Below, one piece after another: positions 5,917 to 15,902 of a DNA stretch of 15,902 nt; position 1 is the first letter of the stretch; every line of letters begins with the position of its first letter. Origin of the DNA: Acidobacteriota bacterium (GTDB lineage Bacteria > Acidobacteriota > UBA6911 > RPQK01 > JADFOI01). The DNA lies in the NCBI GenBank assembly GCA_036338555.1, contig JAYZBY010000030.1, positions 1 through 15,902 of the forward strand, in the 5' to 3' direction. Below the pieces are notes generated by a model. The model did not search any database. It was not told the origin of the DNA and saw only the letters and a list, made by a program, of their open reading frames with translations. The translations under genes and the position numbers were made by a program.

Positions 5917-7236
5917 ATGCGAATAAAGGCCCTGGTGAGCACTCTGGTGGTGTTTTCGGCCTTCACCGGACCACTGCAGGCGGCTGACACCAGCGATCCC
6001 TGGGTGGCACTCGACACTCTCTGGGTGCTTATTGCCGCTTTCATGGTGTTCTTCATGCAGGCCGGCTTCGGAATGGTGGAGGCCGGTCTGATTCGTTCCA
6101 AGAACGCCGGCAACATCCTGATGAAAAACATGATGGATTTTTGTATGGCCTCGCTGGGGTTTTTCATCTGCGGATATGCGCTGATGTTCGGGGGCGAGGG
6201 GCCGCTGCTCGGATCCCAGGGTTGGCTGCTCATGAATGTGGAGTCCCCGGTAGGGATTCCATTGCATGCATTCTGGATGTTTCAAGCCGCCTTTTGTGGT
6301 GCTGCCGCGACGATTGTGGCAGGGGGTATGGCTGAGCGGATGAGGTTCGTTGCCTACCTGATGTATTCGTTTGTCATTTCCGCAGTTGTATATCCGATTG
6401 TGGGTCACTGGATCTGGGGCGGAGGCTGGTTGGCTGGGCTGAGCTTTTACGACTTTGCCGGTTCGACGGTGGTTCATGCAGTGGGAGGGTTTACCGCGCT
6501 GGTGGGCACTATACTGCTCAAGCCGCGCACCGGAAAATTCAATTCAGACGGTTCCCCCAACTTCATTGGCGGCCATAACATGCCCCTGGTCTCGCTGGGT
6601 GTTTTTGTCCTCTGGTTTGGCTGGTTTGGTTTCAACGGGGGTTCGACGCTGGGCATGGGGGACCCGGATCTGGTGGCGCGTATTGTCATCAATACCAATC
6701 TGGCCGCCGGTGCCGGGGCGATAGCCGCCATGTTCACGGCCTGGGCCAAGTTCGGAAAACCTGATCTGGCTCTTTCGTTCAATGGAGCCCTTGCCGGGTT
6801 GGTCGCCATCACCGCACCCTGCGCGGTGGTGACGCCGGGAAGTGCCATTTATATAGGCATCATAGGCGGCATCCTGTGTGTTTACGGCGTCCTTTGGCTG
6901 GATCGTTTCGGTGTCGATGATCCCATCGGAGCCGTCCCCGTTCATGCCTTCAACGGCGTGTGGGGGACCCTTGCCGTGGGTCTGTTTGGACAATCAGTTC
7001 TGGGATCCCCGCAAAGTGGAGTGTTCTACGGAGGTGGATTCTCACAACTGGGCATTCAGGCTCTGGGCGCAATCAGCGTAGCGGTCTTTGTCATGGGCTC
7101 CATGTGGCTGGTATTTAAAACCATCGATGCTCTGGTTGGTCTGCGCGTCTCCGAGGTGGAAGAACTGCGTGGGTTGGATATCGGAGAGCATGGGATGGAG
7201 TCCTACAGTGGTTTTCAGATCTTCATTACCGAATAG
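5917..7236 (+). CDS. amtB: Ammonium transporter (Amt family) with N-terminal signal peptide.
   Basis: 439 aa. Signal peptide [24 protein letters not shown]. Amt signatures are present: [25 protein letters not shown], twin-His (VVHAVGG ... [14 protein letters not shown]), and the [10 protein letters not shown] motif. SD AAGGAGA lies 7 nt upstream. Confidence 0.95.
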
Positions 7237-7244
7237 AAGTCGAA

Positions 7245-7586
7245 ATGAAACTCATCATCGCAATCATTCAACCCCATCAGCTGCCTGCTGTTAAACAATC
7301 GCTCTACGATGCTCAGGTGTACAAAATAACGGTATCCAATGCTTTGGGCTACGGCGAAGAGGAGGGCTATCAGCAGACCTTTCGAGGAGTGGAACGTGAG
7401 GTGAACCTTCTCAAGAAAGTTCGCCTCGAGATCGCCGTCAATGATGATTTCGTTGAAGCGACTGTTGCGGCTATTAGAGATGGCGCTCGAACCAACAATG
7501 TGGGCGACGGGAAAATCTTCATCACCGATTTGCAGGAATGTATCCGAATTCGCACCGGCGAGAGAGGAGATCTTGCAATTGGTTGA
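7245..7586 (+). CDS. glnK: P-II nitrogen regulatory protein (amt-linked GlnK type) with a divergent T-loop.
   Basis: 113 aa. It aligns without gaps to E. coli GlnB: B-loop [10 protein letters not shown] (positions 83-92), C-terminal RIRTGE (101-106) and K58 are conserved. The T-loop reads G37-EEE-G41[10 protein letters not shown], where canonical P-II has RQK at 38-40, Tyr46 and Tyr51. It starts 8 nt after the amtB stop. Confidence 0.9.
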
Positions 7587-7598
7587 TCGTGAGGACCA

Positions 7599-9038
7599 AT
7601 GAAAAACGGCAACGGGAAGAGCACCCTCTCGCGGGATGTCTTCAGGATCATCCGCGAAAAGGAGATCCAGTTCGTGGATCTCAAATTTGTTGATCTTCCT
7701 GGAGTGATGCAGCATATGACCTTACCGGCTGAGATTTTCGATGAGAAAATGTTCATCGAGGGTATCGGCTTTGATGGATCTTCCATACGCGGTTTTCAGC
7801 GCATTCATGAAAGCGACATGCTCATCAAACCCGATGCCTCCACCTTGTTCATCGATCCCTTCATGGATGAGCCGACGGTCTCCTTTTTGTGCAATATCAC
7901 GGATCCTCAAACTCAGAAGGGTTATTCCAGGGACGCGCGTGCCGTGGCCCAAAGGGCGGAACTATATCTGGAGAGCAGCGGGATTGCCGACACCGCCTAT
8001 CTGGGTCCGGAGTTGGAGTTTTTTATCTTTGATGATGTGCGCTACAACCAGTCGACCAATGAAGGCTTTTATCATGTTGACTCCGAGGAGGGGGCCTGGA
8101 ATACCGGCCGACAGGAGGGTCCCAATCTGGGCTACAAGCCACGCAACAAGGAGGGCTATTTCCCGGTTCCGCCCATGGATAGCTACCAGAACCTGCGCTC
8201 CAAAATGGTGAGTGTGATGCGTTCCATTGGAGTGGATGCCGAAGCCCACCATCACGAGGTCGCTTCCGGAGGCCAGTCTGAAATCGATATCCATTACAAC
8301 ACCCTGGTCGATGTGGGAGATCAGTCCCTGAAGTATAAGTACGTCGTCAAGAATGTCGCGCGGCGCTTTGGCAAGACGGTGACCTTTATGCCCAAGCCGC
8401 TGTTTCAAGACAACGGGTCAGGGATGCACGTGCATGTGAGTTTGTGGAAGCAGGGCCGCAACCTGTTTTATCAAAGGAACAAGTACGCCGAACTCAGTGA
8501 TTGGGGAGTCTATTTCATTGGAGGTCTGTTGCACCATGCAGCGACACTGTGTGCCTTTTGTGCCCCCACTACCAACTCCTACCGTCGGCTGGTCCCGGGG
8601 TATGAGGCGCCCATTAACCTGATCTATTCGCAGCGCAATCGCAGTGCCTGTGTCCGCATTCCCATGTATTCGGGCAGCGAAAAGGCCAAGCGCGTTGAGT
8701 TCAGAACACCGGATCCTTCGTGCAATCCCTACCTGGCCTTCGCGGCCATTCTGATGGCGGGGATCGACGGCATAGTCAATCGCATCCAACCCCCGCCTCC
8801 AATCGACGAAGACATTTACGAAATGGCAGGGAACGGAGGTCCTGAGATCAAGAGTACGCCAGGTTCGTTGGCTGAATCCATCGATGCCCTGGAAGCCGAC
8901 TTCGATTTTTTGCTGCGGGGCAGTGTCTTTACCGAGGATTTGATCCAGGTGTGGCTGAACTACAAACGTGCAAGGGAAGTGGACTACATTCGTTTGCGCC
9001 CACATCCGGGCGAATTTGCACTTTACTACGATGTATAG
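7599..9038 (+). CDS. glnA: Glutamine synthetase type I (GSI-beta form, with the 25-aa insertion and an adenylylation-loop Tyr).
   Basis: 479 aa. It contains FVDLKFVDLPG, the GSI-beta insertion HVDSEEGAWNTGRQEGPNLGYKPRNKEGYFPVPP, and catalytic motifs KPLFQDNGSGMHVHVSLW and NSYRRLVPGYEAP. A Tyr in EDIYEMAG sits at the adenylylation-site position. It starts 12 nt after the glnK stop. Confidence 0.95.
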   Translation: MKNGNGKSTLSRDVFRIIREKEIQFVDLKFVDLPGVMQHMTLPAEIFDEKMFIEGIGFDGSSIRGFQRIHESDMLIKPDASTLFIDPFMDEPTVSFLCNITDPQTQKGYSRDARAVAQRAELYLESSGIADTAYLGPELEFFIFDDVRYNQSTNEGFYHVDSEEGAWNTGRQEGPNLGYKPRNKEGYFPVPPMDSYQNLRSKMVSVMRSIGVDAEAHHHEVASGGQSEIDIHYNTLVDVGDQSLKYKYVVKNVARRFGKTVTFMPKPLFQDNGSGMHVHVSLWKQGRNLFYQRNKYAELSDWGVYFIGGLLHHAATLCAFCAPTTNSYRRLVPGYEAPINLIYSQRNRSACVRIPMYSGSEKAKRVEFRTPDPSCNPYLAFAAILMAGIDGIVNRIQPPPPIDEDIYEMAGNGGPEIKSTPGSLAESIDALEADFDFLLRGSVFTEDLIQVWLNYKRAREVDYIRLRPHPGEFALYYDV

Positions 9039-11074: not shown

Positions 11075-12814
11075 ATGATACAAGAAAAAAGCCACCTGGG
11101 GGTATTCTGCTCGGTACTTTTGGTACTGGGCCTTGTGGCTTCCCCGGTCAGGGGAGCCGATCTTCTGGATTCACTCAAACCCGATAAGGTCCTGCTCAAT
11201 GGCAAGATCGTGACGGTTGACGAGGATTTTGGCATAGCCGAGGCCGTGGCCATTAAAGACGGCAAATTCGTGGCCGTCGGGACCAATGCCGAGATCCGAG
11301 AATTGATCGGGGCCAACACCGAAGAGATTGATTTGGAGGGTCGTACCGTGCTTCCGGGTTTCATTGATCCTCACGTGCACTTTGCTCACAAAGTCGGTAA
11401 GCGAAGTGACCGTTACGAAGACATGTTTGCCGAGGCCCGTTCGATCGAACAAATTCGAAGAGCGCTGCAAATGAAAGTGGAGCAGACGCCTCCTGGTGAA
11501 ATCATCTGGTTTTCCCGGGGAGTGAGACGGGCAAGCGAGCTTGCCGAGAGGAGATGGCCCACACGTTATGATCTGGACCCGGTATCTCCCGACCATCCGG
11601 TCATTATGGGTTTTGCTGCGGACCATGTGACGATCGTCAACAGCAAATTGATCGACATGGTGGGTACCATCACCAGGGATACCCCCCAGCCGACCGAGAG
11701 GGGATTTGCGGGGGAGATCATGAAGGATCCCGAGACCGGAGAGCCGACCGGGATCCTGAGGGAGAAGGGAGCCACCACCCTGGCCCGCGGCCCTTTCAAC
11801 CTCTATCCCACTGGGACGCTGGAAGAAAATATTTTGAGGGGTTCCCAGGAGGTGGTGAAGTATGGGATTACCGGCCTTTATGATCCCTGTACCAACATTG
11901 GCAAGGCCATGGACAATCAGCCTGGCCTTCAGGCTTATCAGCGCCTGAGCGCCCAGGGCAAACTGACGGTAAGAATCAACGCCATGATTCGCATGCCGAT
12001 TCGAGTGGAGACCTTGGAACAGAATCTGGCCTTTTTGGACAGTTTTATGTTCGCTCCGGAGTTTCGCAATGACTATTTGCGGGTGGGGACGCTGAAGATC
12101 AGTGTGGACGGTTCCGGAATGCGCGTGCCTCCCGACAAGGTCAAGGCCATTCTCAAAGCCGCTCACAAGGCGGGATGGCAGCTGTTTATCCATCTGGGTG
12201 GAGGGGAATCGTTCGACGTGGTCACCGACTCGCTGGAGGAGGCCTACCGCGAATTCCCGCGTGAGGATGCTCGTCACGTCATCACCCACGCCCGCTTTCC
12301 CTCGGACCGGAATATTGAAACGCTCAAGAAATACGATGTTCTGGTCGAACCTCAGACCGGTAGTCTGATCCGTTCCAGAGATGATGCTGAGAGTCAGGTC
12401 GAGGCCGGAAGATATGGGCCTATTCCCACTCGAACCTACCTGGACAATGGGATTCGTGTCATGACGGGGACGGATCAAAAACCCATCGGACCGCTCAACA
12501 CCATCTGGGCGTCTGTGAACCGCCTGAGACAATCGGGAAAGGTCATCCAGCCGGAGGAGCGCATGACTCTCGAGGAGGCCATCCGTGCCTGCACCATTGT
12601 CCCGGCTTACGCATCCTTTGAAGAAGATGTCAAAGGATCCATCGAACTGGGAAAACTGGCTGATCTGGTGGTCCTGGGTCGGGATATCCTGACCGTTCCC
12701 CAGGAGGAGATCAGAGATATTCCGGTATTGATGACAATGATCGGGGGCAAGTTCGTTTACATCAACCCGAACAAGGATCCCAATCAGAAGGTGGAATATC
12801 CGAACTTTGGCTAA
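11075..12814 (+). CDS. Secreted amidohydrolase-3 family (COG1574/YtcJ-like) metal-dependent hydrolase, paralogue 2.
   Basis: 579 aa. Signal peptide MIQEKSHLGVFCSVLLVLGLVASPVRGAD. The N-domain LNGKIVTVDEDFGIAEAVAIKDGKFVAVG...DLEGRTVLPGFIDPHVHF is about 50% identical to paralogue 1. The C-terminal GKLADLVVLGRD motif is present. SD AAAGGA lies 8 nt upstream. The 453-aa antisense ORF inside it is an artefact. Confidence 0.85.
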   Translation: MIQEKSHLGVFCSVLLVLGLVASPVRGADLLDSLKPDKVLLNGKIVTVDEDFGIAEAVAIKDGKFVAVGTNAEIRELIGANTEEIDLEGRTVLPGFIDPHVHFAHKVGKRSDRYEDMFAEARSIEQIRRALQMKVEQTPPGEIIWFSRGVRRASELAERRWPTRYDLDPVSPDHPVIMGFAADHVTIVNSKLIDMVGTITRDTPQPTERGFAGEIMKDPETGEPTGILREKGATTLARGPFNLYPTGTLEENILRGSQEVVKYGITGLYDPCTNIGKAMDNQPGLQAYQRLSAQGKLTVRINAMIRMPIRVETLEQNLAFLDSFMFAPEFRNDYLRVGTLKISVDGSGMRVPPDKVKAILKAAHKAGWQLFIHLGGGESFDVVTDSLEEAYREFPREDARHVITHARFPSDRNIETLKKYDVLVEPQTGSLIRSRDDAESQVEAGRYGPIPTRTYLDNGIRVMTGTDQKPIGPLNTIWASVNRLRQSGKVIQPEERMTLEEAIRACTIVPAYASFEEDVKGSIELGKLADLVVLGRDILTVPQEEIRDIPVLMTMIGGKFVYINPNKDPNQKVEYPNFG

Positions 12815-13634: not shown

Positions 13635-15059
13635 ATGCCCTACCGGGATCTGCGCGAATATCTTGAGGTATTGGAGAAAAAAGGACTACTTTGCCATATA
13701 CAGGCGGAGGTGGATAAGGACTGGGAGATCTCTGCTGTTTGCAGGAACACCTTCCAGAGGATTCCTCAAAACCGTCGTCCTGCACTAATGTTCGACCGCA
13801 TCAAAAACCATTCTATGCCTCTTGTTATAGGGATTCTTGGCGGCTCAAGACGGATCTATGCCACCGCGCTTGAGACCGATATCGAGGGAGTCCTGGACAA
13901 ATGGGAGTCCGGCGCAAAGCGTCCGCTCAAGGCTGAACTGGTCGAAAAAGGGCTGTGTCAGGAAGTGATCCACAATGGGGAGGATGCGGACCTGGAAATG
14001 CTGCCTGCCCCCGTCTGGAGCGTCGCTCATGATCCAAGTCCCTACCATACTTCCCCCCTTGTGATTTCCCGAGATCCGGAGACCAGGATTCAGAATATGG
14101 GAGTCTATCGAGTTCAGGTCAAAGGACCTAGGCGAGGTGGATTGATGATCAACCCTCCTCGCAACATGAACCATCATATTCGCAAGAATGAATCACAGGG
14201 TCAGGCTACCGAAGTGGCTATCGTGTTTGGTACCGACCCCGTGGTGGGACTGACAGCGGTCACTCCTTTCCCCTATGGAGTCGACGAACTCGAAGTGGCC
14301 GGGGGCGTCCGAGGAGAGCCTGTCGAAGTGGTACGTTGCCTCACGGTCGATCTGGAAGTCCCGGCTATGGCCGAGATCGTTGTGGAAGGCAGGGTCCCGT
14401 GTAAGGGGCGGGAGCCGGAAGGGCCGTTTGGTGAATATGGAGGCTACATGGGGACCGCGGGCAATCACCCATTTGTCGAGGTGACCTGTATCACCCACAG
14501 GCCCGATCCCATTTATCAGGCATTTCTCAGCCAGATGCCACCCAGCGAGTCGAGCTGCATTAAAGGCCTGGGGAGGGAGATGGTCATTTACAGGCACCTC
14601 AAGAATAACCTGGGAATTCCCGTAACCGGCGTCCATCTTCCCGAATGCGGTGGATCCACAGGCATTCTGTTGATTTCAATCCGGAAACAAAACCGCTTTC
14701 AGCCCCTCAAGGCGATGATGGGAGCCTGGTCATTGCATGACGTGTTCGGTAAGATGACGATTGTCGTCGACGAAGACATCGATATTCACGACCCTTCGCA
14801 GGTGGAATGGGCGTTGAGCTTCAGGATGCAGCCGGCTGAGGATGTCCATGTCATCAAGGGAACGGACCCGCTGACCCTGGATCCGTCACAACCCCTTCTA
14901 TTTGGTGAGCGAGTGAAACCTACCGAACAGGTCAGTTCAAAAGTGGGCATCGATGCCACCCGAAAACAATCCTATCCCGCCCTGGCCGTGCCTCCCAAAG
15001 AGCATCTGGAAAAGGTAGATGCTCGTTGGGAAAGCTATGGAATCCAGGAAGTTTCTTAG
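13635..15059 (+). CDS. UbiD-family (prFMN-dependent) reversible aromatic/unsaturated-acid decarboxylase.
   Basis: 474 aa, collinear with E. coli UbiD (MPYRDLREYLEVLEKKGLL...PALMFDRIKN...LEVPAMAEIVVEGRV...EGPFGEYGGYMG...KMTIVVDEDIDIHD). SD GGGAGGGAGG lies about 8 nt upstream. No ubiX (prFMN synthase) is in the window. Confidence 0.9.
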   Translation: MPYRDLREYLEVLEKKGLLCHIQAEVDKDWEISAVCRNTFQRIPQNRRPALMFDRIKNHSMPLVIGILGGSRRIYATALETDIEGVLDKWESGAKRPLKAELVEKGLCQEVIHNGEDADLEMLPAPVWSVAHDPSPYHTSPLVISRDPETRIQNMGVYRVQVKGPRRGGLMINPPRNMNHHIRKNESQGQATEVAIVFGTDPVVGLTAVTPFPYGVDELEVAGGVRGEPVEVVRCLTVDLEVPAMAEIVVEGRVPCKGREPEGPFGEYGGYMGTAGNHPFVEVTCITHRPDPIYQAFLSQMPPSESSCIKGLGREMVIYRHLKNNLGIPVTGVHLPECGGSTGILLISIRKQNRFQPLKAMMGAWSLHDVFGKMTIVVDEDIDIHDPSQVEWALSFRMQPAEDVHVIKGTDPLTLDPSQPLLFGERVKPTEQVSSKVGIDATRKQSYPALAVPPKEHLEKVDARWESYGIQEVS

Positions 15060-15220
15060 AAATAGCGCCAGAGCCACCATTTCTCAAAACCAGTCTTGGC
15101 CCCGTAGATCATGCGAGAAGGTCCCCAGGCACGACTCTCAGGGGTGCCGAAGGGGGGCCAGCCGGCAGGATAGACGGTCCGATTGGCGGCGGCGCGACCC
15201 GCGCCGAAAGCGAGCAGTCA
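15056..15220 (-). other. Candidate selenocysteine (UGA) recoding site plus a 54-codon in-frame C-terminal extension of the SQR-like gene.
   Basis: The same frame continues after the TGA as U-LLAFGAGRAAANRTVYPAGWPPFGTPESRAWGPSRMIYGAKTGFEKWWLWRYF, ending at TAA (plus 15056-15058). The extension looks like the SQR family C-terminus (C-x-A-D/F-G ... KTxFEKxxLWK), with the TGA aligned to the catalytic cysteine. The TAA overlaps the UbiD stop by 4 nt. Confidence 0.45.
15190..15206 (-). promoter_or_regulatory. SECIS-like RNA hairpin downstream of the in-frame UGA.
   Basis: The mRNA reads UGA-CUGCUCGCUUU-CGGCGCG-GGU-CGCGCCG. It is a perfect 7-bp GC stem with a G-rich 3-nt apical loop that starts 18 nt after UGA, similar in geometry to the E. 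coli fdhF SECIS. Confidence 0.4.
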
Positions 15221-15902
15221 TATGACGTGCAGATGCAGTGTCCTGGGCTCTCCCTCTCCAGTCAGCTCCACCGCCAGGTTGTGAGCCACCAACTCCGCCT
15301 GTTGATGGGCTACGCCGCCCGATTTGGATACCGGCATGTCGGCACAGTCTCCGATGGCGTGGACGTTGCTCCAGCGGGTTGCCAGGGTGTCATAGTCGAC
15401 GCGGATGCCGTTTCTCGTTTCTGCCAGTCCGCTATCGACCAGTGCACGGGCCGGTTCATGGGGGGGCACCATAAAAAGAAGATCGTAAGGCAGCTCGACT
15501 CCATAGAGACCCTGGACGGTGCGCCGATCGGGGTCGATGGACTGAGCGGTGAATGAGTAATGCTGTTTGACGCCCCGCTTCTTGCTCTGTGCGTCCATCC
15601 ACACGGCGGGGATACGTTCCTCTCCTGCCGGTTCCGGACTGGTGGTAAAAAACTCAATTTCAATCCGGTCCCGAAGCCCCCGTTCTTTGAAGTAACTGTC
15701 AAGCATCCACTGGGCCTCGTAGGGGGCGGGCGGACATCGGTAGGGACCGGATGGAATTCCCACCAGAATGCGTCCCTTTTCAAAGGACCGGAGAGTCTTC
15801 TGTAGACTCACAGCGGCATCCAGTTCCCAGCTGTGTTGGGCCGCTTCGGTGAACCCGGGCAGTAACTCGGGAGCGGTTCGCATGCCGAGAGAAATGATGA
15901 GA
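15218..15902 (-). CDS. Sulfide:quinone oxidoreductase (SQR)-like FAD-dependent disulfide oxidoreductase. This is the conventional ORF up to the in-frame TGA; the N-terminus lies beyond the right window edge.
   Basis: The minus-strand frame is open to the window edge (...LIISLGMRTAPELLPGF...). The SQR hallmark VGIPSGPYRCPPAPYEAQWMLDSYFKERG (first redox Cys) and the third FAD motif VHAIGDCADMPVSKSGGVAHQQAELVAHN are present. The ORF ends ...TLHLHVI at TGA (plus 15218-15220), about 100 residues short of typical SQRs. Confidence 0.8.
   Translation of the reverse strand, partial: LIISLGMRTAPELLPGFTEAAQHSWELDAAVSLQKTLRSFEKGRILVGIPSGPYRCPPAPYEAQWMLDSYFKERGLRDRIEIEFFTTSPEPAGEERIPAVWMDAQSKKRGVKQHYSFTAQSIDPDRRTVQGLYGVELPYDLLFMVPPHEPARALVDSGLAETRNGIRVDYDTLATRWSNVHAIGDCADMPVSKSGGVAHQQAELVAHNLAVELTGEGEPRTLHLHVI

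Follow-up and report, generated by a model that had tools for sequence, protein, structure and literature searches.

The in-frame UGA codon of a sulfide:quinone oxidoreductase (SQR)-like gene at the end of a contig from an Acidobacteriota bacterium (JAYZBY010000030.1, assembly GCA_036338555.1) very probably encodes selenocysteine (Sec). The whole stretch of 15,902 nucleotides that was analysed is called the window here, and the codon lies on its minus strand, at plus-strand positions 15218-15220. This reading is preferred because TGA is found at the site in 81 of 81 sequences, the frame behind it is a coding tail, a Cys/Sec pair of homologues exists, the codon aligns with Cys379 of human SQOR, and a constrained RNA stem follows it. 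Selenocysteine-containing SQRs are already known, having been predicted in 2025; judged by its sequence, the window gene represents a divergent, widespread and previously unrecognised clade and not a new selenoprotein family.

Translated from 15901, the minus strand encodes an SQR-like fragment, ...GPYRCPPAPYE...AIGDCADMP...RTLHLHVI, which ends at the TGA. Beyond the TGA the frame reads LLAFGAGRAAANRTVYPAGWPPFGTPESRAWGPSRMIYGAKTGFEKWWLWRYF, and 53 sense codons precede a TAA. The original prediction, made from the DNA letters, had described this frame, its TGA and the open stretch up to the TAA, and translation bore the description out. It had also held the protein to be about 55 residues longer than called; about 54 residues were found, and the conserved coding tail supports the extension. 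The fragment is matched by Pfam PF07992 and PF21706 and is 98% identical to P0001, a database protein of 407 amino acids that ends at the same Ile. The N-terminal GxGxxG FAD motif is found in P0001 as GGGSGG; the corresponding part of the window gene falls outside the window. The features of the gene, all on the minus strand, are as follows.

15221-15902, minus strand: SQR-like gene, part 5′ of the UGA; ends ...LHLHVI and runs off the window end; FCSD-central and Pyr_redox_2 domains.
15734-15736, minus strand: TGT codon of the first redox Cys (YRCPPAPYE); counterpart of human SQOR Cys201, invariant in the alignment.
15221-15223, minus strand: ATA (Ile) codon directly 5′ of the UGA; codon choice invariant across relatives.
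15218-15220, minus strand: in-frame UGA, predicted Sec codon; corresponds to human SQOR Cys379 and to the U of NF049943 members.
15190-15206, minus strand: stem-loop resembling a selenocysteine insertion sequence (SECIS), as judged by fold, alignment, synonymous-site constraint and the criteria of the bacterial SECIS (bSECIS) model.
15059-15217, minus strand: C-terminal extension of 53 codons after the predicted Sec, ending ...GFEKWWLWRYF.
15056-15058, minus strand: TAA stop of the predicted recoded gene; the stop codon at this place varies among relatives.

A genome scan with one genome per GTDB species yielded 169 relatives, and the best 80 loci were analysed together with the window (81 sequences in all). 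The 80 loci all align over residues 1-281 without insertions or deletions. TGA occupies the predicted Sec codon in every one of the 81 sequences (80 GTDB species representatives and the window), and the terminal stop after the tail is TAG in 33, TGA in 28 and TAA in 20. Pairwise nucleotide identities lie between 0.61 and 0.97 (median 0.71), and the sequences therefore come from independent lineages and assemblies. The closest relatives are metagenome-assembled genomes (MAGs) of Acidobacteriota at 87-89% identity; most of the others carry the label Binatia or 'Deltaproteobacteria', and a few are assigned to Chloroflexota, Verrucomicrobiota and Eisenbacteria. In the tail, which is free of insertions and deletions, the entropy at the three codon positions was 0.40/0.27/1.22 bits, compared to 0.52/0.33/1.33 bits in the gene body. 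By this comparison, purifying selection acts on the translated tail as far as ...FEKWWLWRYF. As the window is a single sequence, its TGA might be suspected of being a TGC or TGT that was misread in sequencing or assembly, or the gene of being a pseudogene. The same TGA is nevertheless common to 81 independent assemblies, purifying selection acts on the tail, and the ATA codon and the stem have been conserved along with the TGA; the chance of either is negligible.

The read-through sequence was searched against 5.8 billion proteins and gave 1962 matches at E<=1e-10. Among the best 120 of these 1962 matches, all but three cover just 81% of the query, namely the part before the TGA, and the five truncated homologues that were examined end at ...LH[TV]I. 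The NCBI names on clade members, carried by truncated models, are plain 'NAD(P)/FAD-dependent oxidoreductase'. When the tail by itself was searched against the 5.8 billion proteins, six orphan 'hypothetical' open reading frames (ORFs) of 52-87 amino acids were returned and nothing else; annotations therefore leave the tail off the gene in essentially all cases. Two database proteins cover 100% of the query. One of them, P0011, is the single Cys form found for the clade. It reads ...ELHTIC-LLAFEPGKAAANRIIYPQGWPPYG...FEKWWLWRYF (around the Cys, ...LHTIC-LLAFEPGKAAANR...WWLWRYF), has the same tail as the TGA forms, and its Cys, encoded by TGC, aligns with the TGA. P0011 thus provides the Cys/Sec homologue pair with a common tail that the original prediction had called for. 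The other protein, P0012 (L086 3488-4639, MAG GCA_964564835.1), is also full-length and has Asn at the Sec/Cys site, in divergent surroundings (LHDLNFISTGPGH); it may represent an artefact of the assembly or a paralogue that has lost or changed its function.

These database records bear on the possibility that the TGA is a genuine stop. The enzyme would then have 407 (or 329-331) amino acids, and the downstream frame would be a small gene in its own right or a non-coding relic that has been conserved. All gene callers and submitters annotate the gene in this way, and the tail has been called as an ORF of its own in the six entries just mentioned. The terminal stop, however, varies between TAA, TAG and TGA, and a genuine stop at the site should vary likewise, but is TGA in 81 of 81 sequences. 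The tail follows in frame in every case, directly after the TGA and without an ATG or GTG to start from; P0011 is a Cys homologue that is continuous across the site; and the truncated product would be without the catalytic residue that aligns to human Cys379. A genuine stop is hence very improbable. The invariant TGA, the coding tail and the drift of the terminal stop, taken together, therefore effectively eliminate an error, a pseudogene and a real stop. Reassignment of the genetic code was also ruled out. TGA is the ordinary stop of four other window genes (CoxG, GlnK, SPFH and a 182-amino-acid ORF), and the standard code therefore applies, as had been argued before.

P0011 was aligned with human SQOR (E = 1.6e-35) to place the two cysteines. 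The Cys of RCPPAPYE falls opposite 'KCAGAPQE' and the Cys of LHTIC opposite 'YTSC'; corrected for the 39-residue offset of the construct, they correspond to Cys201 and Cys379 in human SQOR numbering. Cys201 and Cys379 of the human enzyme carry the catalytic trisulfide (PMC12589024). The P0011 Cys being aligned with Cys379, the UGA of the window therefore corresponds to the second catalytic cysteine position. The redox-active pair at the human Cys201/Cys379 positions is present, its second member being the predicted U, and the latter forms part of an HxxU motif, which reads H-V-I-U in the window and mostly H-T-I-U in its relatives. The earlier assignment of an N-proximal redox Cys in YRCPPAPYE and of a C-terminal catalytic Cys position agrees with this alignment. 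The proposal that the TGA encodes Sec at the latter position is upheld by the 81 TGA codons, the Cys/Sec homologue pair, the alignment to human Cys379 and the constraint on the stem.

The top Foldseek matches of an AlphaFold2 (AF2) model are SQRs and flavocytochrome c sulfide dehydrogenases (FCSD), with TM scores of 0.63-0.67 that do not separate SQR types. The AF2 model of the Cys homologue has a mean predicted local distance difference test score (pLDDT) of 70, which falls below 50 across residues 329-385, in the tail, too low for a reliable reading of the tail's structure. By sequence and predicted fold, the protein is placed among the SQRs and flavocytochrome c sulfide dehydrogenases, and its sulfide:quinone activity is putative. 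The tail is rich in aromatic residues, and the model has a terminal helix at 368-384, in the region with pLDDT below 50. Amphipathic helices had been expected at the C-terminus. The Eisenberg hydrophobic moment of the tail is low (0.10-0.16), which does not support an amphipathic character.

The perfect 7-bp GC hairpin that had been reported 11 nt after the UGA, CGGCGCG-GGU-CGCGCCG, is present at 15190-15206 with a folding energy of -11.9 kcal/mol. Across the family the stem is C-GGCGC / GCGCC-G (15201-15206 with 15190-15195) and the apical loop N-G-G-N-C (15196-15200). The window sequence has one extra G-C pair, which results in 7 bp and a GGU loop. RNAalifold, run on 80 distinct sequences, predicted a single helix, C-GGCGC / GCGCC-G, around the loop N-G-G-N-C(A), and gave a folding term of -11.1 kcal/mol. 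Pairing is kept in 99.4% of the cells of the stem columns; there are ten one-sided changes, all of them G-U, and three broken cells. The constraint on this segment was measured at synonymous sites, using 68 conserved four-fold-degenerate codons whose median third-position entropy is 1.56 bits. The third positions within the stem, in codons +5 GGC (0.17 bits), +8 CGC (0.10 bits) and +9 GCC (0.23 bits), are the three lowest of the 68, the next lowest being 0.91 bits. At the loop codons +6 and +7, third positions vary freely (1.83 and 1.56 bits).

The bacterial SECIS model considers the length of the stem, the length of the loop with G in its first positions, a UGA-loop spacing of 16-37 nt and an energy threshold (PMC13188914). 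The element here agrees with all four, with a stem of 6-7 bp, a loop of 5 nt (or 3 nt), 17-18 nt from the UGA to the loop and -10.3 to -11.9 kcal/mol. GG stands at positions 2-3 of the 5-nt loop and is invariant. The likeness to the bacterial SECIS consensus covers the lengths of stem and loop, the G at the first two loop positions, spacing and energy. Compared to that consensus, the element is very short, hardly varies in sequence and shows neither a lower stem nor a bulge, and there is extra constraint on the codon 5′ of the UGA.

That codon, where it encodes Ile, is ATA in 77 of 77 sequences. Elsewhere in the same genes ATA accounts for 5% of the Ile codons (45/909), and the Cys homologue uses ATC. 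The invariant ATA suggests, from codon usage, that recoding requires a particular 5′ context or that the codon counteracts termination. On the other side, the base 3′ of the UGA is C in 79 of 81 sequences, and the tail starts with CTG in 79 of 81. UGA-C is a weak context for termination by RF2.

Several results weigh against Sec insertion directed by this hairpin. There are no compensatory (both-sides) changes in the stem, and its near-invariant columns make a shuffle control uninformative. The folding energy is no better than that of dinucleotide shuffles (z = +1.06 for 76 nt, z = +0.58 for 51 nt). As a hairpin alone it is no better than chance, the window having about 14 distinct perfect hairpins of at least 7 bp and 594 TGA triplets. 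With energy and base rate both unremarkable, the significance of the hairpin therefore rests entirely on the comparative data. Between 14800 and 15902, an Rfam search that admitted E values as high as 10 gave four chance-level matches and no SECIS model; the SECIS-like element of the original prediction agrees with the bSECIS geometry and has no match among the Rfam covariance models. The stem-encoded peptide GAGRAA could in principle be conserved for protein reasons. ARAGORN detected no tRNA-Sec in the window and 60 related loci, and tblastn with SelA, SelB and SelD of E. coli found nothing in the window and 1.29 Mb of related flanks; both searches are silent on the rest of the genomes. Finally, all Sec-SQRs are so far predictions.

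Regarding the peptide, P0011 has EPGK where the TGA forms have GAGR, and EPGKAA is thus tolerated in place of GAGRAA. Its DNA at this place, ATC TGC CTC CTT GCA TTC GAA CCT GGC AAG GCG, is without the GGCGC/GCGCC arms. As the Cys form has EPGK and no stem, conservation of GAGRAA is therefore best explained by constraint on the RNA and not on the protein. The ATA codon, the TGA and the stem occur together in the TGA forms and are jointly absent from the Cys form, which serves as a natural control. After the TGC of the Cys homologue (L085 1431-1481), this single sequence folds into another hairpin, CCUUGC/GCAAGG, whose loop has 11 nt (z = -2.4).

As for the Sec machinery, the absence of linked Sec genes is expected if the machinery is unlinked. 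At least one Acidobacteriota species, Occallatibacter riparius, is listed in the literature as a Sec user; the Sec trait is therefore plausible in Acidobacteriota, which falls short of proof. Read-through of the UGA could also take place without Sec, a near-cognate or suppressor tRNA inserting Trp, Cys or Arg and the hairpin acting as a generic stimulator. That no Sec machinery was found in the window, the 60 loci and the 1.29 Mb of flanks is in keeping with this, and stem-loops 3′ of stops are generally known to stimulate read-through in other systems. However, efficient near-cognate decoding of UGA as the sole route to an active enzyme in more than 80 species would, as far as is generally known, be unprecedented. 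The hairpin, moreover, fits the specific bSECIS geometry with its invariant loop GG, and a homologous enzyme has U at the same site, in organisms that its authors list as Sec-utilising. In nearly all selenoproteins, Sec stands in for a redox-active catalytic Cys (PMC13188914), and the site here is of this kind. Read-through without Sec is improbable on these grounds, and Sec remains by far the favoured identity of the residue.

If the UGA is decoded as Sec, the events would follow the E. coli system by analogy. The 6-7 bp GC stem with its G-G apical loop, 11 nt downstream of the UGA, would act as a bacterial SECIS and recruit SelB carrying Sec-tRNA(Sec) to the ribosome. After insertion of Sec, translation would run on for 53 residues. 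The product would be a flavoprotein of the SQR/flavocytochrome-c-sulfide-dehydrogenase type, with a predicted length of 461 amino acids in the Acidobacteriota-like lineage. In its active site, the Cys of YRCPPAPYE would be paired with the Sec of H-V-I-U. Sulfide or related sulfur/selenium species would be oxidised through a Cys/Sec polysulfide bridge, with electrons passing to FAD and then to quinone, and the aromatic WWLWRYF tail might lie at the membrane interface. We infer the insertion of Sec itself, the dependence on SelB, the substrate and the coupling to quinone from these features.

The original prediction knew of no SQR among established selenoprotein families. This no longer holds. 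In 2025 deep-Sep predicted, for Desulfosediminicola, an NAD(P)/FAD-dependent oxidoreductase that contains Sec and has its U at this HxxU site (PMC12013277), TGA- and Cys-containing homologues of it both exist, and the selenocysteine SQR is curated as NCBIfam NF049943 (SQR_III_seleno). The window protein belongs to the same superfamily, and NF049943 is its best NCBIfam match. In the Desulfosediminicola protein (...GHAVUFIESGFGKA..., 32% overall identity) the U aligns with the Cys of P0011 and the UGA of the window, and both have a similar aromatic C-terminal tail, K-x-x-F-[EK]-K-W. Both kinds are computational predictions only. The scores, however, do not reach the 525-bit cut-off of NF049943: the window fragment scores 156.5 bits, the full-length read-through protein of L082 (98% identical to the window) 238.4 and that of L008 (Binatia) 257.0, whereas the Desulfosediminicola protein, the positive control, scores 653.5. 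The window protein would function in the manner of NF049943 members, but its clade is therefore separate and is not captured by current annotation. It also differs in distribution, being found in Acidobacteriota and Binatia-type MAGs whereas the Desulfosediminicola kind is found in Desulfobulbia; in its conserved upstream DHDPS-family gene and small ORF; and in that the Sec form prevails, a Cys form being exceptional. In the literature searched there was no paper describing the window clade, and the text of the BSepDB paper makes no mention of the family.

Compared to Cys-type enzymes of known structure (human SQOR 6OI5, Aquifex aeolicus 3HYV, Acidianus ambivalens 3H8L, Acidithiobacillus ferrooxidans 3T2Z and the FCSD 1FCD), the likeness is seen in E values of 1e-35 to 1e-19, in the TM range given above and in the alignment of both active-site positions with human SQOR. 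The differences are the predicted replacement of the second cysteine by Sec and an identity of just 22-25%. The Sec-containing oxidoreductases of the CoA-disulfide reductase/NADH oxidase type (TIGR03385, UGxP) share the pyridine-nucleotide-disulfide superfamily and the exchange of a redox Cys for Sec. Their Sec, however, lies in the N-terminal redox motif (..SAUGIPY..) and not at a C-terminal site as predicted here, and their matches are weak (25-31 bits).

Of the 80 related loci, 75 have a DHDPS-family (PF00701) gene as the immediate upstream neighbour of the SQR gene, in the same orientation and in a region that for the window gene falls beyond the window end; the other five are without upstream DNA. 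This gene is 63-91% identical among loci (for instance L081 9009-9986, L008 8472-9437 and L086 2108-3112). It fits no NCBIfam equivalog, its best match being dapA at 98 bits against a cut-off of 206 bits. The conserved pairing with the SQR gene suggests, by gene order, a dedicated pathway. Between the two genes lies a conserved ORF of about 70 amino acids (L008 9444-9653; L086 3218-3430) with the motif ..SDFLVL..TSRF..ELTE.G..EQ..W. In the Acidobacteriota lineage this ORF is fused in frame to the N-terminus of the SQR (residues 1-78 of P0001/P0004; L082 8912-9145). The fused segment is preceded by a hydrophobic segment, and the fusion gives the predicted selenoprotein of 461 amino acids. The upstream DHDPS-family gene and the small ORF are a hint, from gene content, of a specialised role.

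Tentatively, and with somewhat less than even confidence, the clade may be regarded as a second, deeply divergent and almost obligately Sec-dependent group of SQR-like proteins, spread over at least 80 species of Acidobacteriota, Binatia and other soil or sediment lineages, with a conserved three-gene cluster and with ATA as a 5′ context determinant. If so, the cluster of DHDPS-family lyase, ~70-amino-acid protein and Sec-SQR would indicate a specialised sulfur or selenium pathway and not generic sulfide detoxification, and the invariant ATA before the UGA would be an unrecognised 5′ determinant of Sec insertion. The conserved gene partners would offer a lead to the real substrate of the enzyme. 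Near-complete displacement of Cys by Sec at the persulfide-carrying position of an SQR would also provide a natural system for the study of selenium in sulfane-sulfur chemistry.

Nearly all public records examined for the gene stop just before the catalytic residue and the tail, and NF049943, the existing curated model, does not rescue these genes. Inferences on sulfide oxidation drawn for Binatia and Acidobacteriota MAGs, and the sizes given for their selenoproteomes, would therefore be wrong or incomplete. The value of the present analysis would thus lie in correcting a systematic mis-annotation, and in the near-obligate use of Sec within a clade, the gene partners and the ATA-UGA context.

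The gene next to the predicted recoded gene in the window lies outside the conserved cluster:

13635-15059, plus strand: UbiD-family decarboxylase gene, convergent with the SQR-like gene, stop TAG.

The two genes overlap convergently by 4 nt at 15056-15059, where their stop codons interlock as TTAG. The overlap that had been predicted is real in the window, but is not conserved in the wider clade; it is present in the closest Acidobacteriota relatives (L081, L082) and absent beyond them. UbiD was also considered as a functional partner and rejected, as a UbiD match was found in just 6 of the 80 loci, at varying positions. An exact look-up of the UbiD sequence of the window found no record. An ordinary amtB-glnK-glnA nitrogen-assimilation cluster occupies 5917-9038 of the window. 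The other window genes comprise two Amidohydro_3 genes (754-2520 and 11075-12814), a CoxG-like gene, an SPFH/flotillin gene and an Lrp/AsnC regulator, none of them unusual.

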